Below, in pieces: positions 5,027 to 35,796 of a DNA stretch of 64,000 bases. Origin of the DNA: Candidatus Poribacteria bacterium (GTDB lineage: Bacteria; Poribacteria; WGA-4E; WGA-3G). The position numbers and the translations under genes are program-made. Below the pieces are notes generated by a model, which was given only the letters and a program-made list of their open reading frames with translations, made no database searches and was not told where the DNA came from. Each line of letters opens with the position of its first letter. Within the stretch, counting starts at the first letter, position 1. Location of the stretch: NCBI GenBank assembly GCA_965215265.1, contig OZ244048.1, positions 1,728,001 to 1,792,000 of the forward strand, read 5' to 3'.

Positions 5027-6121
5027 TTACGTGTTGTTGTCGTTTTCTGCTGCCTGCAGCTGGCGGATAAGTTCTGCCCGCACCTCCGGAGATAAATTCC
5101 GAATCTCCTCCGGGCGAAGTCCGGCTATCCGCTCATCCGGACTCAGACGTGCTAACATATCCGCGCGTTCTGCAGCAGGTAACCTTGCTAACATGTTCGC
5201 CCGGTCTTCAGCAGGCATCACATCTAAGAAAGCCGCCCGGTCTTCAGCAGGTATCACATCTAAGAAAGCCGCCCGGTCTTCAGCAGGTATCACATCTAAG
5301 AAAGCCGCCCGGTCTTCAGCAGGTATCACATCTAAGAAAGCCGCCCGGTCTTCAGCAGGCATCGCATTCAACAGAGCCAGCATATCCGACAAGCTCATCA
5401 CCGACAGCAGCTTCGGACCCAAAGTCGTCGCCACTTCGCGAAGACGACTCTGAAATAAATCTCGATGTCCTTCCATTTCACAAATCTCCTCCGTGACCGC
5501 CGGCTGCAAATACAACGCGAGGTCAAAATATAACGTATTCTCTTCTGTTATCACCCGCCGCAGGAACGCACGAAACTGTTTCCGCGACGACGCAAACAGC
5601 AGCAACCAATAATTCGGTTCAACCCGCTCCACTTCATTACAAACCAATAGATGCACCGGCAGACCATCCCGATGGTGATAATGTCCCGGGGCGAGCTGCT
5701 GCCACGGCAACCCGAAAGGCGGATGTGTCAGCAGCACCCGCGGCTTCCGAGAAGACACTATCGTCAAGGTAACCTCCGTGTCTGGCACCTTATGTTCTGC
5801 GAGATAGCCGTACGCACGCATACAAATCCGGTGATACTCCGAGCCATTCAACGGGTCGTTCTGCCCTTTGAATTCGAACAGATTATACGTGCGTAAGTAA
5901 GAGAGCAGCGGGTTCGCACGCATTCTCGTGCGTGCCGCCGCGCTTTCGAGGATAGCGAGTGCATCTATACGCTGCGGCAACCGGTTCACTTCTATCTCTG
6001 TCTGGATAGAGGCACCGGGTCCAGAGAAGGGCAGCGCGAGGAATTCTTTGAAGAAAGGGTCCCAGAGTTTCCGCTTGCTTTGTGTTTCTTTAGATGTATC
6101 CGGCGCTGTCGTTTGCCTCAT
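5027..6121 (-). CDS. PD-(D/E)XK nuclease-family (Rpn-like) protein, type A, with 12-aa C-terminal repeats
   Basis: QTEIEV..LPQRID...NLFEFKG..D catalytic pattern; 36-bp tandem repeats (PAEDRAAFLDVI); near-identical paralog at 27684-28931. Confidence 0.8.
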   Translation of the reverse strand: MRQTTAPDTSKETQSKRKLWDPFFKEFLALPFSGPGASIQTEIEVNRLPQRIDALAILESAAARTRMRANPLLSYLRTYNLFEFKGQNDPLNGSEYHRICMRAYGYLAEHKVPDTEVTLTIVSSRKPRVLLTHPPFGLPWQQLAPGHYHHRDGLPVHLLVCNEVERVEPNYWLLLFASSRKQFRAFLRRVITEENTLYFDLALYLQPAVTEEICEMEGHRDLFQSRLREVATTLGPKLLSVMSLSDMLALLNAMPAEDRAAFLDVIPAEDRAAFLDVIPAEDRAAFLDVIPAEDRAAFLDVMPAEDRANMLARLPAAERADMLARLSPDERIAGLRPEEIRNLSPEVRAELIRQLQAAENDNNT

Positions 6122-6154
6122 CTATCTCCTTAGGCGCTTAACTCCTTATCATAA

Positions 6155-6184
6155 AGTATAGCAGCCTCTCTGCTTTTTTGTCAA
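6155..6184 (-). promoter_or_regulatory. Sigma70-type promoter shared by the nuclease genes (copies at 7643-7672, 27437-27466, 28965-28994)
   Basis: TTGACA-18 nt-TATACT with TG extension, nearly identical in four places. Confidence 0.75.
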
Positions 6185-6299
6185 GGCTTTTTTTTGCAGC
6201 TCCAGTGCGAAAACGGAGCCTGTTTTGACTCGTACCGTGGCATCAGATTTGCAATAACATAAACCGGTATAGTCCGGACATATACAAATTCTTCGTCTG

Positions 6300-6452
6300 T
6301 TTCAGCCCGGCACCGGCAGATTTAATAAACAACCTCGCACAAATCTCGCCAGAGATATTTTCTGTTTAGCATTCAAAACAGAGATAGGCTCCGGCGAGAT
6401 TTATACCAGAATTATCAACAGATCAGGCGTTGCTGGGCTGAAATATACAAAA
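6300..6452. repeat. Long palindromic REP/MITE-like element; relatives at 38420-38586, 55016-55094, 57365-57432
   Basis: Nested inverted repeats TTTCAGCCC/GGGCTGAAA and AAATCTCGCCAGAG/CTCCGGCGAGATTT; shared end GAAATATACAAAA. Confidence 0.75.
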
Positions 6453-6482
6453 AGGGGCAGCGACGTGAAGGTTGCCGCCCCT
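6449..6482 (-). terminator. Intrinsic terminator downstream of nuclease gene 6615-7607
   Basis: Stem AGGGGCAGCGAC/GTTGCCGCCCCT plus A-run; homologous to hairpins at 27527-27560 and 29060-29091. Confidence 0.75.
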
Positions 6483-6514
6483 GGTGAGGTAAGTTAGACT
6501 AAATCTCAGCGGGT

Positions 6515-6592
6515 TTACTCTTCCCATTTGAGCGTTGCCCACCGTTCAGCGAGTTTTCCGTCCGCACTCAGATGTCCTTTACACGTGCGTGT
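6515..6592 (-). pseudogene. Orphan fragment of a surface-protein 3' end
   Basis: Translates as TRTCKGHLSADGKLAERWATLKWEE*. Confidence 0.8.
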
Positions 6593-6614
6593 ATCAAGGG
6601 ACGGTGGCTCTCCG

Positions 6615-7607
6615 TTACGTATTGTTGTCGTTGTCAGCTGCCTCCAGTTGGCGGATAAGTTCTGCCCGCACCTCTGGAGATAAATGAAGTCCGGCTAGCC
6701 GCTCATCGGGAGTGAGTCCTTTGACACGCTCATCGGGACTCAGACTTGCTAACATATCGGCGCGTTCTTCGGCACTGAGCCCTTTCATCCGTTCGGCAGG
6801 CGGAATTCTCTCTAGAATCTCGGCCCCGAACGTGTCTGCTAACGCTTGCATTTCAGTAGTGAGTCCTTTCATCCGTTCGGCAGGCGGAATTCTCTCTAGA
6901 ATCTCGCTCCCGAACGTGTCTGCTAATGCTTGCATTTCAGTTTCATAAAAGTTCTGTTTCTTTCCCATTTGTAAAATCTCCATTGATGTTCGAGGGTGGA
7001 CCTGCGACGCATATCTAAAATAGCGCTCATTTTCTTCTGCAACTAGCTGCCTCACAAACGCACGGAATCCCGCAGCCGATGCGGTAAAAGGCAGCAACAA
7101 ATAATTCTCTCGCACCAGTTCCAGCTCGTTGCACACTAACAGATGCACTGGAAACACCTCCGTTATCTGGTAGTGTCCCGGCTTGACGTGCTCCCATTGT
7201 CCCTTGTAATAGGGCCGTGAGAGCAGGGCGCGGGGGTAGCGGGCGGAGACAATCGTCAAGGTGAGTGCCTGCTTTGAAAGCCTGTTATCAGCCAGATAAA
7301 GACAAGCGCGCGCCTGGATGCGGTAATAGTCGCTCTCTGTCAAAGCGTCGGCTTGACTTTTGAACTCTATGAGATTATGCATTCGGAAATAGCGGAAAAT
7401 CGGCTCCTCGGCGAGGAGGTTTGCCCGGTCAGCGGCGTTTCGCAAAATCACGCCGATGTCTATCGTGAGGGACAAGTAGCTGACGGCGAGTTCTGCCTGT
7501 ATCGGGATGCCGAGTCTCTCCCCCAGCTGCGCGTTGAGATTCTGTTTGAAGTGTGCGTCATAAGCCGCCCGGACGCTGCGCGGTTTTTCATCGTCTGTTC
7601 TGGGCAT
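6615..7607 (-). CDS. PD-(D/E)XK nuclease-family (Rpn-like) protein, type B
   Basis: QAELAV..L.LTID...NLIEFKSQAD; 84-bp internal duplication (TEMQALADTFG.EILERIPPAERMKGL x2); paralog at 34789-35796. Confidence 0.8.
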   Translation of the reverse strand: MPRTDDEKPRSVRAAYDAHFKQNLNAQLGERLGIPIQAELAVSYLSLTIDIGVILRNAADRANLLAEEPIFRYFRMHNLIEFKSQADALTESDYYRIQARACLYLADNRLSKQALTLTIVSARYPRALLSRPYYKGQWEHVKPGHYQITEVFPVHLLVCNELELVRENYLLLPFTASAAGFRAFVRQLVAEENERYFRYASQVHPRTSMEILQMGKKQNFYETEMQALADTFGSEILERIPPAERMKGLTTEMQALADTFGAEILERIPPAERMKGLSAEERADMLASLSPDERVKGLTPDERLAGLHLSPEVRAELIRQLEAADNDNNT

Positions 7608-7871
7608 AACTTCTCCCTCGTGCGTCTCTTTACTTCTTCTATAGTATAGCAGCCTTTCTGCTTTTTTGTCAAGGCTTTTTTTCCCTCACTTACCCTCCAT
7701 TTTTTTTGAGAGTCGTCTGTGTGTGATATCGTTAGGTTTGTGTGTGAGAAATGAGAATGCGGGCGTGCTCTTAAACTTGATTGTATTCAGCGTGTGTGTT
7801 AGAATCTTTTTATTCAGATAGCAGAAGTGCTTGAAACAGATCACAAGAGATAAAAGAGGAGTAAATAAAAG

Positions 7872-8915: not shown

Positions 8916-8920
8916 CAGCC

Positions 8921-10321: not shown

Positions 10322-10347
10322 GTGCTTTTCCTGATTCCTGGGATGTC

Positions 10348-11235: not shown

Positions 11236-11245
11236 TGAATCGCTG

Positions 11246-12385: not shown

Positions 12386-15300
12386 TTATTCAGCAATAAT
12401 GCCATAAAGGGCAGCTACCCCTCGATCCAGTTTATCCTCAAGGACAGACACGTCGGCATTTAAATCCGCTCGTTTCGCGGAGAGAATCTCATCAACCAAC
12501 GTAACAATCGGTACTTGTTGCTGAGGTGAGACATCAGGAACCGGGAGTTGCTTCCAGTCGTCAGGGTAGAGAGAGATGTTGCTCCGCCGATTCGCTCTCA
12601 GGAAATTATGGGCGAAATTGGAATTCATCACGCCAAGCAAGAACTTCACGGAGAATCGACGGCTTGTTTTCTCAAGTTCTTCGCGTTGTGGCAAATCTGA
12701 ACGTTGGGGAGTTTCATCTTGATAACGGGTGCGTTGTTTTATCGACTTATTCCGAACGCCTGCTAAGTGATGCCAAAGAATGAATCCAATACTATTCGCT
12801 GTGAAAATGAGGTTCTGGTCATCATAACAAGCCTTTGGGTCCGGGCCAGGGTTCCGCGGGGCTAGAATGTTTTCATCAACTTCATAGAGCTCAGGGAAAT
12901 TTACTGAATTAAATAGGCTAGGTGCTCGTTCAGTTCCCCACTCTAGCCATTTGTGTGTAACAGGAATCCATCTTCCAAGATGCTTTCCTTCTACAAACGG
13001 CTTCGGATGCAACTCGTCCCTAGTGTCTGAAACTACATCTTTCTCCTTAAATGCACCTCGTGCTCTTCTTGAGTGTGCATGAACGCTCATCCCTGTTGTA
13101 ATATAACAAATTTTATCAAGTGTCACCGTTTGAATGGAGAATTGTTCAGCCCCGGTGTCTTCTGGAAAAAAGACGCGAGAGGTGAGGGACCGTTGTTCGT
13201 TCGTTGGTAAGGACGTAACGTCTCCGAACTCAAGTGCATGCACGCGGCGGTTAGGTTGATGGCGGTTTCCATCTGTCCGTTGAAACAGATAGATGAGGTT
13301 TTTCACAGCAGCGTCAAAGATTTGAAGATTGCTAAGAAAGTCAAGCCGCAGGATGCGGCTATTTTTCAAAAACCAGTCATGAGATTTCTGTGCGTATTTT
13401 GCGTGGCAGTACGCATCCGAAACGATGAGCGTTGTAAAACCGCCGGGCTTGAGGAGTTTGTAACTCCGTTCAATGAACGGAATATACAGATCCCATTTAC
13501 CGTAAAGCGTTTCATACTGATTGCTATCTCTAATTTGCTGACGTAACGTTTGTAGTCCTTCTGCGTCTGCCCGGACGTAGGGCGGGTTGCCGATGGTAAT
13601 GTTAAAACCCTCTGCGAGCCCGAACATCCATTCTGGGTCGAAAAAGTCAGCAGAAGCGTTCTGATCGTAGGGGTCCCAGGCGGCGATTTCTTGGGCGGTG
13701 CTGCTCGGTAAACCGAGCACGTTGAGCAATTTGCCAATTTCGGCACGGAGGACGGCATCTCGTTCGCGATAGCGTGTTTTGGTACGCGGTGTGCGTGCTG
13801 TAAAGTGGCGACGGCGTACCGCTTCAAGTTCTTTCTCTTTTTTTATAATTTCTGGGGTACGGAGAGACAATTGACCTGTGATACCGAGGAGCGCGTTTGC
13901 GGAGACAAACTTGGTTTCTAGATTTGGGAGGGGACGCACGCCGCGGTTTTCGAGCGTGTCGTCGATTTTCTGATCGACAATGAGAGAGATGAAGCATCGA
14001 AGTTTGGCTATCTGTGCGGCAACCGGCTGGATATCTACGCCGTAGATGCAGTTTTCAATTAGGAAGAGTTTGCGGCCGTAGTCGAGCTCGTTCCGTTCGA
14101 ACGCCTCATTGATATTGTTGATTTCCCCTTCAAGGTCGCGGATGGTGTTCTCTCTAACTGTGCTGTCGTCTATTGCCTCGGCTGCTTTGATGGTGTTTTC
14201 TACTCTGGCAATCTGTCGTTGTCTCCACCGGTCGTTGCGCGGGTCGAGTTTTGCGAGGATGAAAACGAGTTTATGCAGCACGCCCATTGGGAAGGCGCCC
14301 GAGCCGCAGGCAGGGTCGAGAATCTTGAGGGTATCGATGGCTCTTATCAGCTGCGTGGTTTCCTCGTCGTTAAATTGATGGGGTGCGTCGTTATAGGCGA
14401 TTAGGTGTCGGAGTCTCTTTTCAATATCAGATGTCTCTGAGTCGGACATTGTCGTCTGCTGTGTCTCAAGTTCGGTTTTGAGGTAGGCAACGAGCGATTC
14501 GTTAACCATATAGTCGACGATTTCACGCGGTGTGTAGAAAGAGCCGGTCTGCTTGCGGGCGGTTACGCCGGTTTCGGGGTTGTAGGCAGCCAGCAGGTTT
14601 TCGAAGACTTTTCCGAGTAATTCAGGATCAAGCGCGATTTCCTCCTCGATCGGTGTGTTCTCGGTAATCGTAAATTTGTATCGGTGGAGGATTTCAATCA
14701 ACCCGCTGACTTTGTAGCGCTTGCCTTTTGTATCGTAGAACTTGTTGAGGTCCACGTTCTTTTCTTCGGAAAAGAAAAGGAAATTGGGAACAGAGAGCGG
14801 ATTGTCATCCCGGTCGGAGAAGCCGTCAACTCGTAGGACGTTTTTGGACTCTCCCTTGACTTTCTTATCGAGACACTCGAACAGCCCGCCATTAAGAAAA
14901 GGTATCTGCTCAAACAAGCGGAGTGCCTCGTCTGCATCGTTAAAATACGACTTATAGCGGTAGAGCGATGTGATATTGTAGTGTTGTCGTCCGTCGCCGC
15001 GGAATTTGCGGTTAGTGGGCTTTTCGGGAGTGTTCATCTCCTGATTAAGCGTCGCGAAGAAAAGGTTTTGGAGGATCGCCTTGTAATAGGTGCTCTCCTG
15101 CGGTTCGGTGTTAACAAGGATTTTCTCTATCTCTCTCTGCGTAAAGAGTGTATCTGGCACTAATCTCTTTTCCTTGATGAACCAGGCGAAAATCAAGCGT
15201 GTAATCAAGCGGATGACACTGGTGGCGTTTCGGATTCCACTATCTGCCCCGGCATCGTATGGAAATGTTACGTTCTCCACTGCCCAGAAATACCAGTGGG

Positions 15301-15997
15301 AGAGTTCGCGATAGAACTGTCTGTTTAGTTCTTGAATATCCAGTGTTTTTGTCCAGGCGCGATGCAGTTCAACAAAGTTGCTAAAACCGTGCACTCTGAA
15401 TAATTCCTCGCACGACAGTTCAAACAGAATTTTGATGTGAGCCGGATGCGGTGCTTGGAAGTCGATATCCTTAATCAGCGTTACCTTTTCGAGTACATCT
15501 TTGGTGCCATCGCGTTTATGTAAACGCCGGTTGATGACGGCGAAGGTTAAGGTTTGTCCGTGCTGGAAGATTATCATAGCGGGCATCGGGGTGAGTTTGT
15601 TGATTTCGCGGGTGATGTTGGCGAGCTGTGTACGGGTGTAAGTGTTTGCCTGTAGCTTCAGCGCAAAGAATAGGTAGGACTCAATAATGGTGTTATCAAT
15701 TTGTTGATTGTTGAAGGGGAGGCGTTTTTGAGTGCTTCCGGAGATTTCTTCTGCTGTCAGTTGGAACAGTAAATCGATTGATTCCCATTCATTTACGAGT
15801 GCCCGTTCCTTGTTGAGTTTACCAAACAGATCGAAATTGGAAATAAACGCTTCGGCGAGATTAGATTCAAAATCCACGGTTATTTCGCTTTGGTAGCCGA
15901 GTGTGTTAAGCAGGTTTCTGGCATTCCTGACTAGGGAGTGGTGGGGAAAATCTTTTAGTGCTTGTTCAATGTTTTTCATCGCGTGCAGTCTGTTCAT
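12386..15997 (-). CDS. Large type IIG/Eco57I-like DNA adenine methyltransferase with TaqI-like C-terminal target recognition domain
   Basis: GSFYTP, ILDPACGSGAF (motif I), YGVDI, IGNPPY (motif IV); ATGA overlap with the upstream helicase stop. Confidence 0.9.
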   Translation of the reverse strand: MNRLHAMKNIEQALKDFPHHSLVRNARNLLNTLGYQSEITVDFESNLAEAFISNFDLFGKLNKERALVNEWESIDLLFQLTAEEISGSTQKRLPFNNQQIDNTIIESYLFFALKLQANTYTRTQLANITREINKLTPMPAMIIFQHGQTLTFAVINRRLHKRDGTKDVLEKVTLIKDIDFQAPHPAHIKILFELSCEELFRVHGFSNFVELHRAWTKTLDIQELNRQFYRELSHWYFWAVENVTFPYDAGADSGIRNATSVIRLITRLIFAWFIKEKRLVPDTLFTQREIEKILVNTEPQESTYYKAILQNLFFATLNQEMNTPEKPTNRKFRGDGRQHYNITSLYRYKSYFNDADEALRLFEQIPFLNGGLFECLDKKVKGESKNVLRVDGFSDRDDNPLSVPNFLFFSEEKNVDLNKFYDTKGKRYKVSGLIEILHRYKFTITENTPIEEEIALDPELLGKVFENLLAAYNPETGVTARKQTGSFYTPREIVDYMVNESLVAYLKTELETQQTTMSDSETSDIEKRLRHLIAYNDAPHQFNDEETTQLIRAIDTLKILDPACGSGAFPMGVLHKLVFILAKLDPRNDRWRQRQIARVENTIKAAEAIDDSTVRENTIRDLEGEINNINEAFERNELDYGRKLFLIENCIYGVDIQPVAAQIAKLRCFISLIVDQKIDDTLENRGVRPLPNLETKFVSANALLGITGQLSLRTPEIIKKEKELEAVRRRHFTARTPRTKTRYRERDAVLRAEIGKLLNVLGLPSSTAQEIAAWDPYDQNASADFFDPEWMFGLAEGFNITIGNPPYVRADAEGLQTLRQQIRDSNQYETLYGKWDLYIPFIERSYKLLKPGGFTTLIVSDAYCHAKYAQKSHDWFLKNSRILRLDFLSNLQIFDAAVKNLIYLFQRTDGNRHQPNRRVHALEFGDVTSLPTNEQRSLTSRVFFPEDTGAEQFSIQTVTLDKICYITTGMSVHAHSRRARGAFKEKDVVSDTRDELHPKPFVEGKHLGRWIPVTHKWLEWGTERAPSLFNSVNFPELYEVDENILAPRNPGPDPKACYDDQNLIFTANSIGFILWHHLAGVRNKSIKQRTRYQDETPQRSDLPQREELEKTSRRFSVKFLLGVMNSNFAHNFLRANRRSNISLYPDDWKQLPVPDVSPQQQVPIVTLVDEILSAKRADLNADVSVLEDKLDRGVAALYGIIAE

Positions 15998-18900
15998 TGA
16001 ATCACCAGCCATGTAATAAGTTCAAAATCAGTTGTATTGCTAACCTGTTTTTGTTGCTTTAGCATCTTACCGCTGCGGCTTGATAAGAGGTTGCCGATGG
16101 CACGTTTTTGGTAGGTGCGCGTGATTGAGTTAACAGCTTTCTGGAGGAGGGCGTTGTAGTGCGTCATATTTTCTCCGTTGTGGGTGTGTTTGTCAAACAG
16201 GGTGCACAACTCTTCATACGGCTGCTTGACTCCTGCACAGAGTTGTCGGTACATCTCAAATATCTGTTTGGGTTGTGCAAAAGTAAAGCGTACGATGCCG
16301 TCGTCGCGAATGTAGACAAGAAAGTAGGGTTGCAAGGGGTTTATCTGTTCATTTCCGGTTGAATCACCTTTTTGACGCAAACAGAAAATGACACCTTTGG
16401 TTATGGTTTGATAATCGGGATGTGATGGTACAACGGCATAAAGTCCGAAAGGTGCATCTTCAAGGCGCTTGCGGTTGCTTTGAATATAATTCACCAAGTC
16501 GATACGGAATTCATCTAGGTTAAATTCATTGAGTACGACGTTTTCGCTGAAATCTTCGAGGTCTAGGACTTCATCTTTGAGTTTTAGTAGTTGCCGGTCT
16601 CGGTATTTGAGTTCATCTGTGAGGTGTTCCTGAATATTTTCTGGTTGTAGGAGGTTGTCGCCCTGGGTTGCGGCGATATCCACGAGTGCCATTCGTGCCT
16701 CGACGCGATTTTTGAGTTTGATGTAGCGGTTGAGGTCTGGTGTCGGCCAAAAGTTGACAAGTTTGACGTTGCGATTGATACTACCGATGCGGTCTATTCT
16801 GCCGAAGCGTTGAATGATACGGACTGGGTTCCAGTGAATGTCGTAGTTAATGAGATAATCACAGTCTTGCAAGTTTTGGCCTTCGGAAATGCAGTCTGTG
16901 CCAATCAAGAGGTCAATTTCGGCATCTTGTGGCATAGAATCTATCGCGGCGCGTTTTCTGGATTCTGGAGAGAAATTGGTTAGGATATGTTCAAATTTGC
17001 TACGGCCGAAAGTTGTTTTATTCCCGCTTGTGCCTCCGGATACCATTGCGGTATGAATTCCGAATTCTTCGGATGCCCATTGCTGTAAAGCGTCGTAAAG
17101 ATAGGTGGCTGTATCCGCAAAAGCGGTAAAGATTAATACTTTACGATTTGGGTTGCCGTTCCGGTCAGTGGTAGGATTTTTTACCTTTTCAGCAATTAAT
17201 TCCTGGAGTTTGGCGAGTTTTGCATCACGTTCAGGCGTAATGTCCTTTGCGTAAATATAAGGCAGCTCAAGTTGCTCCTGGTCACGGTTCAGGTCTGCTA
17301 ACCACCTTTCGACGTCAAGGTGTGCCATTTTGAAGACCAGTTTTTTCCCTACCTGCATCGCTGCTTGTAACTCTTCGTCGTCAAGTTCCTCAATTTGAAT
17401 CTCTTCCAGGCTAAGTTCAGAATTTTCATCTTGGAATTTTTGGAACCGTTCGATGCGTTTTTTTAGATCGTCAAGTTTTGCGATGGTTCGTTCCAACGTA
17501 ATAGCAAAGGAGTGGACGGAACTTTCCAAGCGTTTAAGAAAGTTCACCTTCATCATGCCGATTAGGTAGTATTCCCGGTCGGTTTGTTTGAAATTTTTAA
17601 TCTGTCCCAAATCATATTCGTCATAATATTCGGGCAGAATATATTTTGAAGGGTTGAATAGAGAAAGTTGGTAGTTGGAAATTTCTTCGTTTAATTCGTC
17701 GTAAGATAGGAACTGACGTTTCAGATCAATCTCGGAGTAGACAGAAACGGGCTTGGTTCGTTTGGGGAATCCGCCTAGTTTTTTTAGCGATTCGGGATAG
17801 TATTTTTCAATATGTTTTCGCGAACGCGCAATAGTCAATTCATCGAGCAGTATGAAAAAAGCGGAGCTGAGTTTTTCCAATAAATCTCGGGTGTGCCGTC
17901 TCTCTTTCTCTTTTGTCCAGTGTGTGAAAGTTCTTTGTGCATCTGCGAGCGTACTTTTCAGGCTATCGATACTTAACGATTCTCGAAAAGCATCATCTTG
18001 GTTTGCGGTAAGAAAAGAGATTTGATTCCGTAGTTCTTTCAAATCATTGTTGACAGGCGTTGCGGAAAGCAGCAGCACCTTGGTTTTGATACCGTTCTGG
18101 ATAATATCTTCCATTAATCGCTGGTATCGGCTTTTGCTAATCAAGTTTCCGTCTTCGTCCCGTTTGCCCTGTGTATTGTTTCGAAAGTTGTGTGACTCGT
18201 CAATAACAACCAAGTCATAGTTTCCCCAATTGAGGGTTTCGAGATTAATGTTTCCGGAGTATCCACTATCCCGGCTGAGGTCTGTGTGGGATAGGACTGC
18301 GTATCTAAATCCGTCTTTGAGGAACAGGTTGAGCTCACTATTATTTTCTGCTTGATAAATCGTCCAATTGTCCCGGAGTTTTTTGGGGCATAACACCAGT
18401 ACGTTCTGGTTGCGCAATTCAAAGTACTTGATGATTGCGAGAGCCTCAAAGGTTTTGCCGAGGCCGACACTATCAGCGATGATACAACCGTTGTGTCGAA
18501 GGATTTTGTTAATTGCGCCTTTTACTCCATCCTTTTGAAATTCAAACAGGTAATTCCAGATGTGTGTATCAGTGAGCTGCACATCCTCTGTGAGGAGTCC
18601 ATCTTTTTCTTGCTGTTCTAGGAATTGCCCAAAAATGTGATAAAGCGTTTTATAATAAATGAACTCCGGGGCGTGGTTTTGATAGAGTTGTTCGAGGTAT
18701 GATAAGACTTCCGCTTTAACATCCTCTACAAGTTCGTCGTTATCCCAGATGGTATCGAACCACATTTTGAGTGCGTGCCGGTCTCGGTTGCTGTCCACCT
18801 CCAAATTGAGTTCGATGTTATTGGCGTTTGAGCTGATTCCGAGTCCGCGTACGGTAAAATTGGAGCTACCGACTATTGCCTCCTCCACCCCGTTATTAGA

Positions 18901-21114: not shown

Positions 21115-21185
21115 GAATGCGATCGGAATCTTGCGGTAAAATCAAAAAAACCTCAAAATTTACGGATACAAAGGTGGAACCAAAA

Positions 21186-23329: not shown

Positions 23330-23376
23330 GAGCATAACAAGCGAAATAATAGTTTAATTTTAGGGAGGGGATTCCA

Positions 23377-27518: not shown

Positions 27519-27560
27519 AAAAAAAACCAGGGGCAGCCATATGAGGGTGGCTGCCCCTGG
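27519..27560 (-). terminator. Intrinsic terminator
   Basis: CCAGGGGCAGCCA/TGGCTGCCCCTGG stem plus A8 run. Confidence 0.85.
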
Positions 27561-27602
27561 TTTAGGTTAGTTTAGTTTAGTTTAACTTAGCATTCACAGC
27601 GT

Positions 27603-27683: not shown

Positions 27684-28931
27684 CTACGTGTCGGTGTGGT
27701 TGTCAGCTGCCTCCAGCTGCCGCACGAGTTCCGCGCGCACCTCCGCAGATAAATTCTGAATCTCCGCCGGCGACAAACTCTGAAATGCCTTGACGCGCTC
27801 CTCGGGACTCAGGCGTGCCAACATATCGGCCCGTTCTGCCGCGGGTAGACTCGCTAACATATCGGCCCGGTCTGCCGCAGATAACCTTGCTAACATGTCC
27901 GCACGTTCTGCGGCGGGTAAACTCGCCAACATATCGGCCCGGTCTGCCGCAGATAACCTTGCTAACATGTCCGCACGTTCTGCGGCGGGTAAACTCGCCA
28001 ACATATCGGCCCGGTCTGCCGCAGATAACCTTGCTAACATGTCCGCACGTTCTGCGGCGGGTAAACTCGCCAACATATCGGCCCGGTCTGCCGCAGATAA
28101 CCTTGCTAACATGTCCGCCCGGTCTTCAGCAGGCAGCCGTGCGAGCAGATCCGCCCGGTCTTGAGGACTCAAGCGGGCGAGCATGTCCGCACGCTCCTCC
28201 GATGTCAGCGCCGACAGCAGCTTCGGACCTAAAGTCGTCGCAACTTCGCGAAGACGACTCTGAAAGAAATCTTGACGGCCTTCCATTTCACAAACCTCCT
28301 CCGTGACTTCCGGCTGCAAATACAACGCGGAGTCAAAATATAACGTATTCTCTTCTGTTATCACCCGCCGCAGGAACGCACGAAACTGTTTCTGCGACGA
28401 CGCAAACAGCAGCAACCAATAATTCGGCTCAACCAGTGCCACTTCATTGCAAACCAACAGATGCACCGGCACGCCATCCATCAACCGATAATGCCCCGCC
28501 GCCAACGGCTCCCACGGCTCCCCAAAAGGTGGGCGGGAGAGCAGCGCCCGCGGCTTCCGAGACGATACTATCGTCAGGGTTAACTCGGTTGCAGGCACCT
28601 GCTTATCTGCCAGATAACCACGCGCACGCATACAAATCCGGTGATACGCCGATTCATTCAACGGGTCGTTTTGTCCTTTGAATTCAAACAGATTATGCGT
28701 GCGTAAGTAAGAGAGCAGCGGGTTGGCACGCACTCTCGCGCGGGCTGCGGCGCTTTCGAGGAGAGCGAGTGCATCTATACGCTGCGGCAACCGGTTCACT
28801 TCTATCTCTGTCTGGATAGAGGCACCCAGCCCAGAGAAGGGTAGGGCGAGGAACTCTTTGAAGAAAGGGTCCCAGAGTTTCCGTTTGCTTTGTGTTTCTT
28901 TAGATGTCTCCGGCACTGTCGTTTGCCTCAT
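27684..28931 (-). CDS. PD-(D/E)XK nuclease-family (Rpn-like) protein, type A, with expanded 12/24-aa repeats
   Basis: Same N-domain as 5027-6121; (ADMLARLSAADRADMLASLPAAER)x4. Confidence 0.8.
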   Translation of the reverse strand: MRQTTVPETSKETQSKRKLWDPFFKEFLALPFSGLGASIQTEIEVNRLPQRIDALALLESAAARARVRANPLLSYLRTHNLFEFKGQNDPLNESAYHRICMRARGYLADKQVPATELTLTIVSSRKPRALLSRPPFGEPWEPLAAGHYRLMDGVPVHLLVCNEVALVEPNYWLLLFASSQKQFRAFLRRVITEENTLYFDSALYLQPEVTEEVCEMEGRQDFFQSRLREVATTLGPKLLSALTSEERADMLARLSPQDRADLLARLPAEDRADMLARLSAADRADMLASLPAAERADMLARLSAADRADMLASLPAAERADMLARLSAADRADMLASLPAAERADMLARLSAADRADMLASLPAAERADMLARLSPEERVKAFQSLSPAEIQNLSAEVRAELVRQLEAADNHTDT

Positions 28932-29051
28932 CTATCTGCTTAGACGCTCCACTTCTCATAATAAAGTATAGCAGCCTTTCTGCTTTTTTGTCAAGGCCGT
29001 CTCCAGATTTGGCTTCTCAAGGTGGCCTCGGTGCTTCTCTCTATCCAAAGC

Positions 29052-29091: not shown

Positions 29092-29125
29092 GGTTTGGGT
29101 TAGGTGAGTTTAGCATTCACAGCGT

Positions 29126-31828
29126 TTATTCTTCCGATTTGAGCGTTGCCCAGCGTTCTGTGAGTTTCCCATCTGCACTCAGATGCCCTTTCAAGCGGGT
29201 TGTCTGCAGCGTCTGCTGCACACCTGCGTTGGAGACATCTTCAATGCGGTAGTAATACACCACATTCGGTTTGGCAGACGTATCCGTCCAACTATAGTCG
29301 TTGCGTTCGCCAGTGGTGCCGGCCCCTGCAATCAACTCGGAGTTTATCTTTGTGAAGGTGCCGTTGCGCGCATCGCTCCGCAGCAGGTTGAATCCTGCGT
29401 TGTTCAACTCGGATTCGGTTGCCCAACTGATGACGATAGCGCCTTCTACGCGTTTCGCGGTGAAGGCAGAGAGCGCCACGGGCAGCGGGCCGCCGCCCCG
29501 ATAGCCGGGAGTGCCTTCATCCTCGGCATTGCCGTAGAAGGTGTCGCGCTGCGCCTCGTTCAAAGAGGTGTTGGCGGCTAGCACCCAACCCGCTTCGGTG
29601 GTGCCGTCTTCGGCAACTGCGCCGGTGGCGCGGCTAGCGCTGCCGTAGCGGCGGATGATGGAGCTGCGCCCGTCTTCAAGCATTGGCAGCTCCCACGCAG
29701 GTTCTTCCCCTCGCCCGACATAGTTGCCAACCGTATCCACCACGGGCTTGACACCAGAGGCTTCTTTGCCATATAACGTCAACTTGAAGGCGGTGGTGGC
29801 TAGCACCGGCGAACGCCGTTCCAAGTCCAGTTTATCGCGATAAGCACTCTCACGCCGCAGGTTGATGACACGTGCATCAGGGAAGTGGCCAGAGGTGCGC
29901 CCGGTGTCTGTCACGATGAGCAGCGTCTGGTTCGGGGGGATTATCTTACCGCCTACGAATTTGAGCGTCACATCTGGGCGAACGGCGGTGTCGGTGGTGG
30001 CATCTTGTTGGATGCGGAGCGTCCAGTCGTTCAGATTCACCGCTTCGGTTAGAGAACTATTGTGCAGCTCTATCCACTGCGGCAGCCGGTTGTCTGTGTC
30101 GAACATAATCTCGCTGATGGAGACTTGGCCCGCGGCGGATTTATCTTTCACTACACCGTTCTGATACCCGGGGGTACCGCCATACGCGTCTGCGTTCGGG
30201 GTATCGCGATCCCAGCCTATGCCGGTGAAACCGCGTTTGCTCCACGCGTTTTCCGCGAAGTTGTTCTCATTGTCGCGCTGATACACTGACCCTTCCTTGA
30301 ACGCCTCATCTATATCCTTAAAGATGTCCTTGTCGGGATCCGGTGTCGCCTGCAGTGGCCAAACCTCCGTATTGTAGTTCTGAGAATCATGCGTCCCTAC
30401 AAACGGAACGAAAACAGCACCTGCCGCATCTTCTATGTGAATCGGCTTATTCTCTTTATCTTTCCCATTCCGCAGCAGCAACAAGAACTTACCGTCTGCG
30501 GGAAGGTTGAGGCCGGATACAACTACGTATTGGTGCGTCGCACCATGCTGCACCTCATCCGCATCGTCCACACCCAGATTGTTCCCACCAGCGAGAAAGT
30601 TTCCTTCGGGATTGCTGTTCGCAACGAGTAACACACCCCCGCCGGCAATACTCTTATCAGGCAGCGTCACAAGCACCTTCTCGGTGCGCGCAGACGCATC
30701 GCCTGTCACAAGCGTGAGCTCCCACTCTTTGATACTGACGGCGGCATCCGTGTCGTTTCGCAGCTCTATCCAATCTAGGCTGTCAGACGTGTGATTCCCT
30801 ACTTCGTTGATGACAATCTTTCGACCTTCGAAACTCGTCCGGTCTCCGGCGGCGATACGCTGAGACGGGGTCGAACCAGGGGTGCCGATACGCTGCCCAC
30901 CGAGGTTTATGCTCGGCGCAGAGGACGCTTGCCAGTTATCGGAACGGTTACCGTCTTCGACTTCAGCCTTGGCAAAATCTATGCTCCTATACATCGAAAC
31001 CAGAGACGCAGACGCGGCTTCATCAGTTGCCACGGTGCGCCCACCTCCACCGGGCACCTCCCAGTAGCCCAGCCCTAGATTGCTTATGCTATCTATCACC
31101 AGATACGGAGTCTCTCCTATTGTCACTTCCGCACGATTCACCAGGTCGCCTGTCGTAAAATACAACGCCCAATCGTCCGCTACGGCAGTGGCGGCAACCG
31201 CTTTTACTGCATACAGCTCTAGCCACTGGCCAGACGACGACGGCGTTTGACTCGCATCTTCGCCCCACAACACTTCACTTATGACCACATCACCTTTCGC
31301 GGCACCGCCGGTGGTTAGCTTCGGCGCTATCAATTCTATCGTCCCACCATTACGGAAAAATTCGCTCAAGTTACGAGTCAGGGTTTCTACAGGTGCAACA
31401 GCACTGGAGATACCATGCGTTGTGGATGAGCTTCCCTCTTGGGTCAATACCTCAAAACCGCCCGCTGCCAACGCTGAAAGCGTGAAGTAGTCCAATTTCG
31501 CGTCAGGGCGAAGTATCGTCAAGTCGTCTAACGCTGACAACTCATCGGGGATATCCGATACTTGCGTTCCCCGGAGATCCAGCTCTTCCAAGTTCGTGAG
31601 GCTTGACAACGCAGAGATATCCTCTACTGGCGTATTACTGATATCCAACTTTTTCAAGGTGGTGAGAGTTGCCAGAGACGAGACATCCTCTACTTCCGTT
31701 CCAGAGAGATCCAGCTCTTCCAAGCTCGTGAGGGCTGAATGCGCTGCGAAAGGCAACGCTATTACAAGGCCGGCTAATAATACAACAATGCACAACGGCA
31801 TTTTTTTTCCTAATGCTTTCGAATACAT
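29126..31828 (-). CDS. Secreted surface protein: LRRs + three lamin-tail-like domains + LPV-type C-terminal domain with GKLTERWATLK tail
   Basis: Signal peptide; VVISEV..QWLELY, IVINEV..DWIELRN, VSISEIM..QWIELHN; GTPG motifs; GGAGG RBS. Confidence 0.85.
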   Translation of the reverse strand: MYSKALGKKMPLCIVVLLAGLVIALPFAAHSALTSLEELDLSGTEVEDVSSLATLTTLKKLDISNTPVEDISALSSLTNLEELDLRGTQVSDIPDELSALDDLTILRPDAKLDYFTLSALAAGGFEVLTQEGSSSTTHGISSAVAPVETLTRNLSEFFRNGGTIELIAPKLTTGGAAKGDVVISEVLWGEDASQTPSSSGQWLELYAVKAVAATAVADDWALYFTTGDLVNRAEVTIGETPYLVIDSISNLGLGYWEVPGGGGRTVATDEAASASLVSMYRSIDFAKAEVEDGNRSDNWQASSAPSINLGGQRIGTPGSTPSQRIAAGDRTSFEGRKIVINEVGNHTSDSLDWIELRNDTDAAVSIKEWELTLVTGDASARTEKVLVTLPDKSIAGGGVLLVANSNPEGNFLAGGNNLGVDDADEVQHGATHQYVVVSGLNLPADGKFLLLLRNGKDKENKPIHIEDAAGAVFVPFVGTHDSQNYNTEVWPLQATPDPDKDIFKDIDEAFKEGSVYQRDNENNFAENAWSKRGFTGIGWDRDTPNADAYGGTPGYQNGVVKDKSAAGQVSISEIMFDTDNRLPQWIELHNSSLTEAVNLNDWTLRIQQDATTDTAVRPDVTLKFVGGKIIPPNQTLLIVTDTGRTSGHFPDARVINLRRESAYRDKLDLERRSPVLATTAFKLTLYGKEASGVKPVVDTVGNYVGRGEEPAWELPMLEDGRSSIIRRYGSASRATGAVAEDGTTEAGWVLAANTSLNEAQRDTFYGNAEDEGTPGYRGGGPLPVALSAFTAKRVEGAIVISWATESELNNAGFNLLRSDARNGTFTKINSELIAGAGTTGERNDYSWTDTSAKPNVVYYYRIEDVSNAGVQQTLQTTRLKGHLSADGKLTERWATLKSEE

Positions 31829-31848
31829 TACTTTACCTCCAAGTTTAG

Positions 31849-33537
31849 TTAATTTGTTGATGACAGCGCTGAAATATCCGACACTTCCGTATCACTAAGA
31901 TCCAGCACTTTCAAGTTGGTTAGGTCTGACAGAGGTGTGATATCCTCTACTGGCGTTCCCGAGAGATCCAGCTCTTCCAAGTTCGTGAGGCTTGACAGCG
32001 CTGAAATATCCGACACTTGCGTATCACTAAGATCCAACTCTTTCAAGTTGGTTGCGGATTGAAGGAAAGTCAGATCGCTAACGTCTGAGCCACTTAGATC
32101 GAGGCTTGTCAATTCTAGCAGATTTGCCTGGGTGACAGTCGTCCCCGCGGGGATGTTGAGTTCCTCCCTGATTCCCGCAAGGAGCGCCGCATCCCGAACC
32201 GTATTTACAGACACCGTCAGGGCTTCCGAGGCCTGGCTCATGTTGCCCGCTATGTCCACTGTGGCATTCTCAGGCACCGTTATTTCCACATCTCCGTCAA
32301 AATTCAACGGCGGCGTGATAGTCGCTCTGTAGACTTTGAAGGCTGCACTGCGTCGTCTCACCTCATTCGATTCATCCGGCTGTTTCATATCGAGGGCATG
32401 AAACATCAGATCGGAAACGGTCCAACCGTCGAGTTCCATACCTTCAGAATCCGTAAACACGAAATCTTCTGCTGTGAAGCTATCGTCTCTCGTGGTTTCC
32501 GCAATGGTACTTGTCCCTCCGGCACCAGCTCCCGAATTAGAAAACTTGATCTCTATCTCAAAGTCACCTGTTTCAATGGTTTCAGTCGACGGAAATTTGT
32601 ACACGAACGTGCTTGCACGGATGGTATCTACCCCGTGTGAATAGGTATTTACCCCGTTTGAAACACTGGGAGCATACACGTAAAAATAACCTGCTCCGTA
32701 TCTGGCTTCTGTACTATAGAACCGGGTGGTCGGATGATCTTTCCACCTATTGTTGCCGCCCCATGGAAGAGGATCATCAGTAATCAGGTTGGCAGAAGTA
32801 ATAGCAGCCTCCCGTTCTGATTTTATCTGATTCGGCCCTGCTTCTGTCGACCATCCTGCGCCCTGCGTTAGGTCTTCCTCGGCTATAGCAAAGAAACCGT
32901 GCCTATCAAGAGCAGTATTTATCCCATTGAAATCGTTATCGTTATCAGCTGAACTGACCTCATACTCAAAGGTTAAGGTTGCACCACCAGCGGTGGTCTG
33001 GTAATACGTATTATCAGCTTGAACTGTATAATGGGAATCGCTGAAAGTGCCAGCTGCTATCCCTGTGAGGGAATCCAAGTTAAGAGAGAACCATCTACTT
33101 GCACCATCGAAGTGCAATTGGAGACGAAGATCCTTATGGACAAACACGTCAACATCGAAAACGAACTGAATTTGAATCGTATCACCGGCGTTATAGAAGC
33201 CAGCCGTTATAGGACTCGCATGAGCCTTATCAGTAGAATAACCTGTCTCCGCATCCACGAGACCCTCAGTCACTAGATGGTTCCCAGCTCTTGCTAAATC
33301 CTGTGAACTCCAGCCCTCATCTCCTCTAAAATTAGCCCAACCTGCATCTTCGGCTGCTTTGTGAAACGTAGCAAACATAGATGTACCAGTATGCGAGGGA
33401 TTATTCACTATAATGTTCTGTAACACAGCTGCTTGAGCGTGAGCAGATGTCGAAATTACCGAGGAGATAAATCCGACACTCAACACGCAAACTAAAAAAC
33501 CTACTAATGATAATGGAAAAGCAAAGTTTCCTTTCAT
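31849..33537 (-). CDS. Secreted Ig-like + LRR surface protein
   Basis: Signal peptide ending AHA; YRATITP...VPENATVDIAGN Ig-like motif; C-terminal LDLS.T.VSDISAL LRRs. Confidence 0.8.
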   Translation of the reverse strand: MKGNFAFPLSLVGFLVCVLSVGFISSVISTSAHAQAAVLQNIIVNNPSHTGTSMFATFHKAAEDAGWANFRGDEGWSSQDLARAGNHLVTEGLVDAETGYSTDKAHASPITAGFYNAGDTIQIQFVFDVDVFVHKDLRLQLHFDGASRWFSLNLDSLTGIAAGTFSDSHYTVQADNTYYQTTAGGATLTFEYEVSSADNDNDFNGINTALDRHGFFAIAEEDLTQGAGWSTEAGPNQIKSEREAAITSANLITDDPLPWGGNNRWKDHPTTRFYSTEARYGAGYFYVYAPSVSNGVNTYSHGVDTIRASTFVYKFPSTETIETGDFEIEIKFSNSGAGAGGTSTIAETTRDDSFTAEDFVFTDSEGMELDGWTVSDLMFHALDMKQPDESNEVRRRSAAFKVYRATITPPLNFDGDVEITVPENATVDIAGNMSQASEALTVSVNTVRDAALLAGIREELNIPAGTTVTQANLLELTSLDLSGSDVSDLTFLQSATNLKELDLSDTQVSDISALSSLTNLEELDLSGTPVEDITPLSDLTNLKVLDLSDTEVSDISALSSTN

Positions 33538-33630
33538 TTTATTTAATTCCTCATTTATTTTTTTTGCACTCATTATGCAAAATTTATAACCTTCTGGCTA
33601 AGTTATCGAACCAAAAAACACTTTAACTAT

Positions 33631-33815
33631 ATTATAACACAAACCACGAAAAACGTCAACTTTTTTTCCTGGTTTATCGCACATTTATACAAGCTATCGA
33701 TATAAACTAAAAGACGTTGTAAATATAGGAATGTCTCATTAATTAATTGAATCACAAAATCACTACTATATTACAATACAAATATATTATAACACAAAAA
33801 TCCGGAATATGTCAA
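33631..33815 (-). promoter_or_regulatory. Two tandem extended -10 sigma70 promoters
   Basis: TTGACG-17-TATAAT (33659-33631) and TTGACA-18-TATAAT (33815-33786). Confidence 0.7.
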
Positions 33816-34078
33816 CTTTTTTTATTGAATCCACGTCCGCTGCCCTCTTCTCAGGGAGACACGGCTTGCTGTGCCATCTGACTAATTAGTGACTTTTCAC
33901 CCACCGACTTGAGTCCGGTGGTAAAAAGGGCCAATTGGACTTAATGAGATAACGATGAAAGCGAATTGTAAGTTACGCGCTGAGACACTTTTTTGTTGAT
34001 ATTCAATCCAGAATCTCGCTGCCGATTGATGTCCGAGGGTGGACCTGCGAGCGGGTATCAAGGGACGGCGGCTCTCCG

Positions 34079-34366
34079 TTAGGTGTCGGTGTGGTTGTCA
34101 GCTGCCACCAGCTGTCGGACAAGCTCTGCCCGCACCTCCGCAGATAAATTCTGAATCTCCGCCGGGCGAAGTCCGGCTAACCGCTCATCGGGGCTGAGTC
34201 CTTTGACACGCTCATCGGGGCTCAGCCGTGCTAACATGTCGGCACGCTCTTCGGGAGTGAGTCCTTTCATCCGTTCGGCAGGCGGAATTCTCGCCAGAAT
34301 CTCGGTGCCGAACGTGTCTGCCAATGCTTGCATTTCGGTGTCGTAAAAGTTCTGTCTTTTTCCCAT
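34079..34366 (-). CDS. Stand-alone 95-aa tail protein (candidate antitoxin cassette)
   Basis: GGAG-9 nt-ATG; MGKRQNFYDTEMQ...ADNHTDT*. Confidence 0.6.
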   Translation of the reverse strand: MGKRQNFYDTEMQALADTFGTEILARIPPAERMKGLTPEERADMLARLSPDERVKGLSPDERLAGLRPAEIQNLSAEVRAELVRQLVAADNHTDT

Positions 34367-34433
34367 TTGTAATATCTCCAATGATGTACGAGGGTGGACC
34401 TGCGAGCGGGTATCAAGGAATAGGGACTCTCCG

Positions 34434-34721
34434 TTAGGTGTCGGTGTGGTTGTCAGCTGCCACCAGCTGTCGGACAAGCTCTGCCCGCACCTCCGCAGAT
34501 AAATTCTGAATCTCCGCCGGGCGAAGTCCGGCTAACCGCTCATCGGGGCTGAGTCCTTTGACACGCTCATCGGGGCTCAGCCGTGCTAACATGTCGGCAC
34601 GCTCTTCGGGAGTGAGTCCTTTCATCCGTTCGGCAGGCGGAATTCTCGCCAGAATCTCGGTGCCGAACGTGTCTGCTAATGCTTGCATTTCGGTGTCGTA
34701 AAAGTTCTGTCTTTTTCCCAT
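34434..34721 (-). CDS. Stand-alone 95-aa tail protein (candidate antitoxin cassette)
   Basis: Same protein sequence as 34079-34366. Confidence 0.6.
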   Translation of the reverse strand: MGKRQNFYDTEMQALADTFGTEILARIPPAERMKGLTPEERADMLARLSPDERVKGLSPDERLAGLRPAEIQNLSAEVRAELVRQLVAADNHTDT

Positions 34722-34788
34722 TTGTAATATCTCCAATGATGTACGAGGGTGGACCTGCGAGCGGGTATCAAGGAATAGGGACTCTCCG

Positions 34789-35796
34789 TTAGGTGTCGGT
34801 GTCGTTGTCAGCTGCCACCAGCTGTCGGACAAGCTCTGCCCGCACCTCCGCAGATAAATTCTGAATCTCCGCCGGCGACAAACCTTGAAATGCCTTGACG
34901 CGTTCATCGGGGCTAAGTCCTTTGACGCGTTCATCGGCACTCAGGCGTGCTAACATATCCGCCCGGTCCTGAGGGCTCAAGCGGGCCAGCATGTCCGTGC
35001 GGGCTTCAGCGGGCAGCCGTGCTAACATGTCGGCACGCTCTTCGGGAGTGAGTCCTTTCATCCGTTCGGCAGGCGGAATTCTCGCCAGAATCTCGGTGCC
35101 GAACGTGTCTGCCAATGCTTGCATTTCGGTGTCGTAAAAGTTCTGTCTTTTTCCCATTTGTAATATCTCCATTGATGTTTGAGGGTGGACCTGCGAGGCA
35201 TATCTAAAATAGCGCTCATTTTCTTCTGCAACTAGCTGCCTCACAAACGCACGGAATTGTTCCGCTGATGCCGTAAAAGGCAGCAACAAATAATTCTCTC
35301 GCACCAGTTCCAGCTCGTTGCACACTAACAGATGCACTGGAAACGTCTCCGTTATCTGGTAGTGTCCCGGCTTGACGCGTTCCCATTGTCCCTTGTAATA
35401 AGGCCGCGAGAGCAGTGCGCGAGGGTAGCGGGCGGAGACAATCGTCAAGGTGAGTACCTGCTTTGAAAGCCTGTTATCAGCCAGATAAAGACACGCACGC
35501 GCCTGGATGCGGTAATAGTCGCTCTCTGTCAAAGCGTCGGCTTGACTTTTGAACTCTATGAGATTATGCGTTCGGAAGTAGCGGAAAATCGGCTCTTCGG
35601 CGAGGAGGTTTGCCCGGTCAGCGGTGTCTCGCAAAATCACGCAGATGTCTATCGTGAGAGGCAGGTAGCTGACGGCGAGTTCTGCCTGTATCGGCAGCCC
35701 GAGTCGCTCTCCGAGCTGCGCGTTGAGATTCTGTTTGAAGCACGCATCATAAGCCGCCCGGACACCGCGCGGTTTTTCATCGCCTGCTCTGCGCAT
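34789..35796 (-). CDS. PD-(D/E)XK nuclease-family (Rpn-like) protein, type B
   Basis: N-domain nearly identical to 6615-7607; different tail. Confidence 0.8.
   Translation of the reverse strand: MRRAGDEKPRGVRAAYDACFKQNLNAQLGERLGLPIQAELAVSYLPLTIDICVILRDTADRANLLAEEPIFRYFRTHNLIEFKSQADALTESDYYRIQARACLYLADNRLSKQVLTLTIVSARYPRALLSRPYYKGQWERVKPGHYQITETFPVHLLVCNELELVRENYLLLPFTASAEQFRAFVRQLVAEENERYFRYASQVHPQTSMEILQMGKRQNFYDTEMQALADTFGTEILARIPPAERMKGLTPEERADMLARLPAEARTDMLARLSPQDRADMLARLSADERVKGLSPDERVKAFQGLSPAEIQNLSAEVRAELVRQLVAADNDTDT

Follow-up and report, generated by a model that had tools for sequence, protein, structure and literature searches.

The window analyzed here is a stretch of 64,000 nucleotides (nt) from a sponge symbiont, Candidatus Poribacteria bacterium (GenBank assembly GCA_965215265.1, contig OZ244048.1, positions 1,728,001 to 1,792,000 of the forward strand), and it carries four genes for PD-(D/E)XK-like nucleases, each with an in-frame Shine-Dalgarno (SD) sequence and ATG at the start of its C-terminal tail. 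The internal start is likely functional, and the genes on balance probably belong to an unnamed, Rpn-like gene-within-gene nuclease/antitoxin family whose mechanism is proposed by analogy. The evidence consists of the motif itself, its conservation at the nucleotide level, the fold of the N domain, free-standing tail genes, and a parallel with canonical Rpn genes of the same genome. In the proposed mechanism each gene would be read twice: translation from the 5′ ATG would give the full-length nuclease (L), and ribosomes at the conserved internal SD would start at the junction Met and give the tail alone (S, 69–238 amino acids (aa) in the host genome). S would bind the identical tail segment of L and keep the nuclease inactive, as RpnS does with RpnL, and repeat number would set which S matches which L; the pair would act as a toxin-antitoxin or abortive-infection type defence module, in which L would be toxic and phage would be the threat countered. 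Extra copies of S would be products of tandem duplication 3′ of L (cassettes at 34079–34761), with translation again starting from this SD and ATG. The toxin-antitoxin or anti-phage role is suggested by point-by-point analogy with the features of Rpn cited here from PMC10400941.

The four genes, all on the minus strand, fall into two types whose N domains are about 40% identical. Type A comprises A1 (5027–6121, 364 aa; a PD-(D/E)XK-like N domain and a tail of 12-aa repeats, assigned from its open reading frame (ORF), translation and family membership) and A2 (27684–28931, 415 aa; a long array of 36/72-nt repeats in the tail), and type B comprises B1 (6615–7607, 330 aa; assigned from its ORF and used for structure modelling) and B2 (34789–35796, 335 aa). 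The internal site of A1 (5474–5492) has GGAGGAG (5492–5486), a 9-nt spacer and ATG (5476–5474), opening an ORF for a 149-aa product (5027–5476), and that of A2 (28284–28302) has GGAGGAGGT (28302–28294), a 7-nt spacer and ATG (28286–28284), with a 200-aa product. In type B the SD is GGAG with a 9-nt spacer, at 6981–6978 with ATG at 6968–6966 in B1 (site 6966–6981, 117-aa product), and at 35170–35167 with ATG at 35157–35155 in B2 (site 35155–35170, 122-aa product). The initial annotation had given these coordinates and products correctly and had placed the sites at the start of the variable tail; the repeat-variable part begins about 33 codons past the Met, and the internal ATG therefore opens the tail module and lies ahead of the repeats. 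Its further observation, that the site is equivalent in types A and B despite their divergent N domains, holds, the site occupying the same alignment column in both.

The N domain, about 175 residues long, leads through three linker helices into a helical tail composed of 9- to 12-residue repeats. An AlphaFold2 model of B1 (39-sequence alignment; predicted local distance difference test score (pLDDT) 87.3, predicted template modelling score (pTM) 0.72) runs through a helix, three strands, another helix and a fourth strand into additional strands; the three linker helices then end at residue 214 and give way to a helical tail (pLDDT about 70–80). The best structural matches to this model were nucleases of the restriction-endonuclease fold, NucS/EndoMS (2vld), McrC (6hz4) and AF1548 (1y88), and further matches included Can2, Card1, Avs3/4, BamHI, FokI and NucC. 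In the PDB, Foldseek had no match at E ≤ 0.001 and a sequence search with a profile picked up chance helical matches only; no solved Rpn-like chain was among the structural matches, an absence compatible with kinship. Active-site residues D50 (in ..ID..) and K83 are invariant among the 39 aligned homologs and E81 is present in 36, E81 and K83 lying within N.(I/F)EFK, and L.PEERL.GL-type repeats are present. The PD-(D/E)XK domain with an ID...N.(I/F)EFK motif and L.PEERL.GL repeats, as first read from the sequence, is thus borne out by the placing of D50, E81 and K83, the confident model and the nuclease-fold matches, and the N domain is predicted to have, as in the Rpn family, a PD-(D/E)XK nuclease fold with its catalytic residues. 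Pfam matches are confined to the tails, which match MgtE_N (PF03448; A1 46.5, A2 84.0 and B2 31.8 bits against a cut-off of 25.9, with E-values for A1 and A2 of 5.7e-12 to 1.2e-23; B1 falls below at 13.8 bits); this match is read as one to helical repeats, with no transporter implied, TIGR00400 being far below its cut-off. NCBIfam gave no match above its cut-offs for the four window proteins. In the ESM Atlas, the 30 nearest clusters are unnamed, and the nearest named ones (score 0.91) have PF04754 on 16% of members and DUF4351 on 25%, and are taken as leads only. Prediction of a tail homodimer scored 0.23 and 0.31, against a mark of 0.42, which counts neither for nor against a dimer.

The host organism uses SD pairing: its single 16S gene ends ...GGATCACCTCCTTTCT, with the anti-SD CCTCCTTTCT present at the 3′ end. 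Start-site statistics were compiled on long ORFs outside the family, used as crude gene models. GGAG lay 5–10 nt 5′ of ATG at 23.8% of 1,926 presumptive starts and at 1.8% of 14,406 internal in-frame ATGs of the host genome, and AGGAG at 16.2% and 0.26%, respectively. Chance origin of the four sites is unlikely, because the 16S gene carries the anti-SD and GGAG is this rare at internal ATGs. Spacer length at presumptive starts peaks at 6–9 nt, so the 7–9 nt spacers of the four genes are typical of real starts.

A search of the whole host genome (4.83 Mb, one contig) with A1 and B1 returned 26 full-length paralogs plus a fragment; xxG GAG NNN NNN NNN ATG stands at the junction in each of these 27 ORFs. 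For the phylum, every ORF matching the family profile was aligned from 70 loci, which with the 26 host paralogs gave 76 full-length genes, partial and tail-only ORFs being left out; greedy clustering at 80% amino-acid identity removed 34 of these, leaving 42 non-redundant homologs (8 from the host, 34 from other genomes). The junction Met is present in 42 of 42, and an in-frame ribosome-binding site (RBS) and start codon at the tail start, as in RpnL/RpnS, is found in 27/27 host ORFs and 42/42 non-redundant homologs. At least 4 nt of AGGAGG stand 4–12 nt 5′ of the ATG in every one of the 42 (AGGAGG 17, AGGAG 14, GGAG 5, GGAGG 4, GAGG 1, AGGA 1). Codon −5 relative to the Met ends in G in 40 of 42, with a varying residue (K20, E9, R5, M3, others), and codon −4 is Glu in 38 of 42, encoded by GAG in 36 of those 38.

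Synonymous-site conservation of the SD across homologs, proposed as a check in the initial annotation, was found on both measures used. K/E/Q codons at the SD end in G in 66 of 70 cases, against 918 of 2,087 (44%) elsewhere in the same genes, and Lys codons immediately before and after the ATG are mostly AAA (3 of 16 and 2 of 23 G-ending). Columns were also ranked against one another, because all columns share the same phylogeny, and third-base conservation among 269 well-occupied columns placed the Met 1st and the two SD codons 2nd and 4th. The SD is recoded as ATG AGG AGG in L041 and ATG AGG AGA in L042 (L numbers denote loci), stands in another codon phase as GAA GGA GTG (= AAGGAG) in L046 and L050, appears as CGG GAG with a 6-nt spacer in L021, L022 and L049, and takes the form GAGGAG-N9-ATG in a distant metagenome homolog (L075). 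Predicted folding is weaker in a 50-nt segment with the junction ATG at its centre than elsewhere in the gene (mean z +0.99; this segment is among the least-structured 10% in 19 of 42 genes), and AT content is 67% in the 9-nt spacer as opposed to 53% over the genes. In a wider alignment of proteins, with no DNA, Met occupies the junction column in 27 of 39, and most of the 12 lacking it form the most distant subgroup. The G-ending bias and the other codon phases run counter to an SD that reflects mere Glu-Glu/Met-Glu codon usage without conservation, and indicate that the motif is no codon accident.

B2 is followed by 2.4 tandem copies of a 355-nt unit (98% matches), which form free-standing tail cassettes on the minus strand. 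Cassette 1 (34434–34761) has a homology block from 34761, GGAG at 34734–34731, ATG at 34721–34719 and a 95-aa ORF running to 34434; cassette 2 (34079–34406) has GGAG at 34379–34376, ATG at 34366–34364 and likewise a 95-aa ORF; and a third, truncated cassette (34000–34051), with its homology block from 34051, has the SD/ATG segment deleted. These cassettes had been described as beginning at the internal site. They do include the GGAG and ATG, and the shared homology begins 40 nt 5′ of the ATG, that is, 27 nt before the GGAG: blocks common to parent and cassettes begin at 35197, 34761, 34406 and 34051, with ATGs at 35157, 34721 and 34366. Cassettes 1 and 2 thus each have the 40 nt from 5′ of the internal ATG, GGAG included, followed by the tail ORF; the two ORFs differ by one base and have the same translation, without two 36-nt units and 9 nt that are present in B2. 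The cassettes are out of frame with the stop of B2, and in cassette 1 a sensible protein can therefore start only at the conserved ATG. A consensus scan of the DNA from B2 to the cassettes flagged neither promoter-like nor terminator-like sites, and the cassettes are therefore probably co-transcribed with B2 and translated from the conserved SD and ATG. Separate S genes downstream of L by duplication, as known for RpnL/RpnS, are thus represented in the window by two cassettes (34079–34761).

The same layout was found in other genomes (loci L008, L032, L052, L053, L054, L061 and L063), where free-standing tail ORFs of 67–100 aa start at the same Met, with stops directly 5′ of the SD in L008, L032 and L052. 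In a dozen genomes, the profile search of the phylum found only tail ORFs. Nei-Gojobori rates were computed for 11 of 19 tail ORFs, those in two evident orthologous groups (two genera), giving ratios of nonsynonymous to synonymous rates (dN/dS) of 0.10–0.28 in the first group (10 pairs) and 0.11–0.43 in the second (15 pairs), at synonymous rates (dS) of 0.17–0.57; group members also show insertions and deletions of entire repeat units. In the second group, four members have a common upstream flank unrelated to the nuclease domain and retain GGAGG-N9-ATG. These rates indicate that the free-standing tail genes are under purifying selection, and this, together with the retained SD behind a non-nuclease flank, argues that the tail is a protein in its own right, starting at the junction Met. 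The gene within a gene first proposed from the four window genes is thus favoured by an SD and ATG that are conserved at the nucleotide level in divergent homologs and reused by free-standing tail genes. As a separate observation, the tail-only genes of 67–85 aa under purifying selection (L031, L064, L065 and L067 in genus g15; L027, L029, L030, L068 and L069 in genus g6) include some in genomes with no full-length nuclease detected.

Sequence places the family outside Rpn (YhgA-like, PF04754/COG5464), although it seems to act in the Rpn manner. No PF04754, PF12784 or NCBIfam Rpn match was obtained for the four window proteins at E ≤ 1, and 0 of the 39 aligned homologs match PF04754 or PF12784 at E ≤ 0.01. 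The PF04754 hidden Markov model finds 24 canonical Rpn genes elsewhere in the host genome, all above the cut-off, so the Rpn search works there; hhalign of the family against these 24 gave a probability of 0.65% (E 0.088). This profile comparison, which the initial annotation had asked for, agrees with its view that the family is distinct from canonical Rpn. The co-resident Rpn genes have an IEHQS motif and tails with four-residue repeats (GIEQ/GIER/GREE) in variable number, and their tail start reads ATG GAG GTA N6 ATG in 23 genes and GAG GAG GAA AAA ATC ATG in one, a GGAGG-type SD. Examples on the host contig are at 1264848–1265474, 3218155–3221289 (three in a row) and 4143936–4145995; some stand in tandem arrays, and GGAGG lies 8 nt 5′ of the tail Met. 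With 26 genes of the new family and 24 of Rpn, the 4.8-Mb host genome has about 50 Rpn-like genes.

In Rpn, an internal start gives rise to the small RpnS proteins (Zhong et al. 2023, PMC10400941), and in RpnA the RBS and internal translation initiation site were abolished by K240R+E241D+M244L (PMC10400941). Bound RpnS inhibits the nuclease activity of RpnL, and the specificity of this binding is tuned by four-residue repeats; extra rpnSs genes (DUF4351) stand downstream of some rpn genes, arrays form by tandem duplication, and transposon ends are absent; 26 rpn genes are cited for one Bacillus thuringiensis (all PMC10400941). As far as these cited features go, the two families share an N-terminal PD-(D/E)XK nuclease domain with a helical tail of variable repeat number, a tail start with RBS and ATG in frame, encoded within Lys/Glu-Glu..Met (K240, E241 and M244 in RpnA), extra S genes downstream by duplication, many copies per genome, patchy distribution, and absence of transposon ends. 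At the level of sequence, the new family has counterparts of the internal start, the repeats, the downstream S genes, the tandem duplication and the absent transposon ends of Rpn. It differs in a nuclease domain without detectable sequence similarity, in an active-site E-F-K where the co-resident Rpn genes have IEHQS, in repeats of 9–12 residues (27- or 36-nt units, MgtE_N-like) rather than 4, and in a predicted S of 69–238 aa against about 5 kDa for RpnA-S; moreover, RpnL/RpnS is known from experiment, and the new family from sequence alone.

Two other systems offer partial likenesses. Free-standing RpnS-type proteins with DUF4351 (PF14261; YpaA/RpnE-Ss) are likewise small tail-only genes, downstream of or apart from a nuclease gene, and DUF4351 is the domain assigned to separate RpnS genes (PMC10400941), whereas the window tails match MgtE_N and not DUF4351; by Pfam, a DUF4351 tail is joined to the present N domain in 1 of 39 members, with P0017 and P0055 ending similarly by eye only. 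In Cas10d/Cas11d of type I-D CRISPR, an internal start yields a C-terminal fragment, the small subunit (PMC10400941), but there the two products cooperate in one complex and the protein family is unrelated.

A commentary on Rpn asks whether internal-start antitoxins are "a tip of a proverbial iceberg" (PMC10400984), and the present family is a first candidate for intragenic antitoxins outside Rpn: a concrete second family, invisible to current Pfam, NCBIfam and PADLOC models, for which comparative genomics strongly supports a selected internal start. Tentatively, it may be a second PD-(D/E)XK family, unrelated to Rpn by sequence and profile, that has come to the same internal start, repeat tail and spare S genes by convergence or very old divergence, its tail-only genes acting as "orphan antitoxins" where selection retains them in genomes with no nuclease copy detected. 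If so, the gene-within-gene antitoxin would be no peculiarity of Rpn, and orphan antitoxins could confer immunity to incoming nuclease genes, or have another role in conflicts among strains or mobile elements in the sponge microbiome. A set of L/S pairs with a different repeat unit (9–12 aa) could also show how repeat number encodes partner specificity, and neither the nuclease family nor its small products are picked up by gene callers and defence finders. A literature search found no paper on the family or on Rpn in Poribacteria; it did not extend to Dataset S1 and the supplementary (SI) figures of the Rpn paper, which list orthologs and DUF4351 genes.

Among rival explanations, the one that survives best, though still unlikely, grants that S is made but not that it is an antitoxin, and has the cassettes serve mainly as silent donors in cassette exchange (gene conversion) that diversifies the nuclease tail, for example its target or partner specificity. 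Such exchange is suggested by the 355-nt tandem array with its 98% matches and 40-nt homology block 5′ of the ATG, and by tail ends (EVRAELVRQL..ADN.TDT) that are common to types A, B and D despite different N domains, as if exchanged between paralogs. However, SD, ATG and open frame are all intact in the cassettes, no terminator-like site was flagged between these and B2, and tail-only genes persist under purifying selection where no full-length copy was found, as silent donors would not.

That only the full-length protein is made, GGAG and ATG being by-products of a conserved Lys/Glu-Glu...Met peptide at the domain boundary, is improbable to about the same degree or slightly more. Glu −4 (38/42) and Met (42/42) are indeed conserved residues, and AlphaFold2 puts the Met at the end of helix 205–214, within the helical region. 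Against this, third bases are fixed as G at 66 of 70 K/E/Q codons (44% elsewhere) although AAA and GAA are synonymous, residue −5 varies over at least four amino acids yet its codon ends in G in 40 of 42, the motif recurs in another codon phase (GAA GGA G..), and free-standing tails under purifying selection start at the same Met behind stops. It is more doubtful again that the internal SD is a programmed translational pause, aiding folding of the nuclease before the tail is synthesized, and not a site of initiation: its position at the domain junction would suit a pause, but an invariant ATG 6–9 nt downstream, an AT-rich spacer and low mRNA structure would not be needed, and free-standing tail genes using the same SD and ATG would be left unexplained.

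Several points weigh against a gene-within-gene nuclease/antitoxin module. Conservation of Glu −4 and Met as residues means that part of the signal could be a protein-level constraint, the SD of the type B genes in the window is merely the 4-mer GGAG, and homologs are interrelated, so that codon counts are not independent events, a difficulty that the column ranking answers in part only. Internal SD-like sequences have been proposed elsewhere as translational pause sites. No PADLOC model matches the family, the neighbours of A1 and B1 are metabolic genes with no evident defence-island context, and none of the sequencing runs listed for the stretch is on record as RNA.

The 26 host paralogs comprise 17 of type A, 5 of type B (one with an internal deletion), 3 of type C and 1 of type D, and copies are 74–87% identical. 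The tails that follow the junction Met are 69–238 aa long, with length differences made up of whole 9- or 12-residue units; repeat number thus varies among copies, as in RpnL/RpnS, and the 36-nt DNA units reach 97% matches in the window. In the type B paralog with the deletion (host contig 2224886–2225671), the nuclease core (..FTASA) is fused to MEILQM, with SD and ATG retained. A full scan of 1.84 billion representative proteins found 657 relatives at E ≤ 1e-3 and 78 at E ≤ 1e-10. A profile built from 15 members was used to search 176 genomes of the phylum, with at most 13 candidates scored per genome, so that copy numbers are lower bounds; the family was found in 37 of the 176 genomes and 10 of 31 genera, expanded in a few genomes, and this profile search gave no match in the only other genome of the same genus (G069, one contig, 95% complete). 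A metagenome contig search with member P0040 returned one locus (L075), no relative of P0054 was found in the genome contigs searched, and viral contigs yielded no close relative of P0002 or P0022 by a method that detects close relatives only. Contigs from four runs aligned to 4900–7800 gave only short fragments of the multi-copy family, with nothing on starts, ends or variation in repeat number.

A transposase or insertion sequence, with copy number due to transposition, was considered in view of the 26 copies in 4.8 Mb and the frequent annotation of canonical Rpn genes as putative transposases (PMC10400941), and was rejected as scarcely credible: no terminal inverted repeats flank A1 or B1 (just four 14–18-nt pairs, none bracketing a gene), copies are 74–87% rather than nearly identical, and the 17 of type A show continuous high conservation (0.78–0.95) in just the final 100 alignment columns (about 70 nt 5′ of the start codon), with partial, interrupted similarity farther upstream and downstream and no defined shared ends. 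Separately, the new family and canonical Rpn seem to rise and fall together in a comparison of five genomes (G069, G029, G030, G007 and G117), four of which were picked for carrying the new family: G069 has neither, G029 at least 13 new and 14 Rpn genes, and G030 at least 13 and 7.

Upstream of each gene, a consensus scan found a promoter-like site on the minus strand: in A1 it is sigma-70-like, TTGACA-18-TATACT with a TG extension (11/12, 6155–6184), and equivalent near-consensus sites (11/12) are at 7643–7672 for B1, 28965–28994 for A2 and 35920–35949 for B2. The SD region of the full-length type A start (A1 6122–6135, A2 28932–28945; 4 nt from the ATG) reads AAGCAG in 14 of 17 type A copies (A2 among them) and AAGGAG in the other 3 (A1 among them); the long form of type A may therefore be poorly translated, with S favoured over L, which would fit low L and higher S translation. 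A weak internal promoter-like site in type A (GTGATA-16-TATATT, 9/12; minus strand, A1 5527–5554, A2 28337–28364), ending about 50 nt 5′ of the internal ATG, is kept as a lead, and the same scan flagged no internal promoter-like site in type B genes. Terminator-like hairpins on the minus strand lie downstream of A1 (4912–4940) and, similarly, of A2 (27524–27563). Tail repeat arrays, also on the minus strand, are at 5198–5401 in A1 (36-nt unit, 4.7 copies, 97% matches), at 27816–28161 in A2, and at 6776–6941 in B1 (84-nt repeat, two copies).

Elsewhere in the window, 5–12 kb from the Rpn-like genes, an Eco57I-type N6 methylase (1,208 aa) adjoins a PLD-nuclease/SNF2-helicase fusion (1,100 aa) on the minus strand (12386–19296), and the two are probably a restriction or defence pair. 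Three large ORFs lie in 21117–23090 and 29126–33573: the first (21117–23090) has leucine-rich repeats and GHL15 and dockerin domains, the third (31849–33573) has LDLS..VSDIS-type repeats, and the last two (29126–33573) contain 66-nt tandem repeats. Eukaryote-like repeat proteins are typical of sponge symbionts. Three tRNA genes stand in a row at 49218–49593 on the minus strand.

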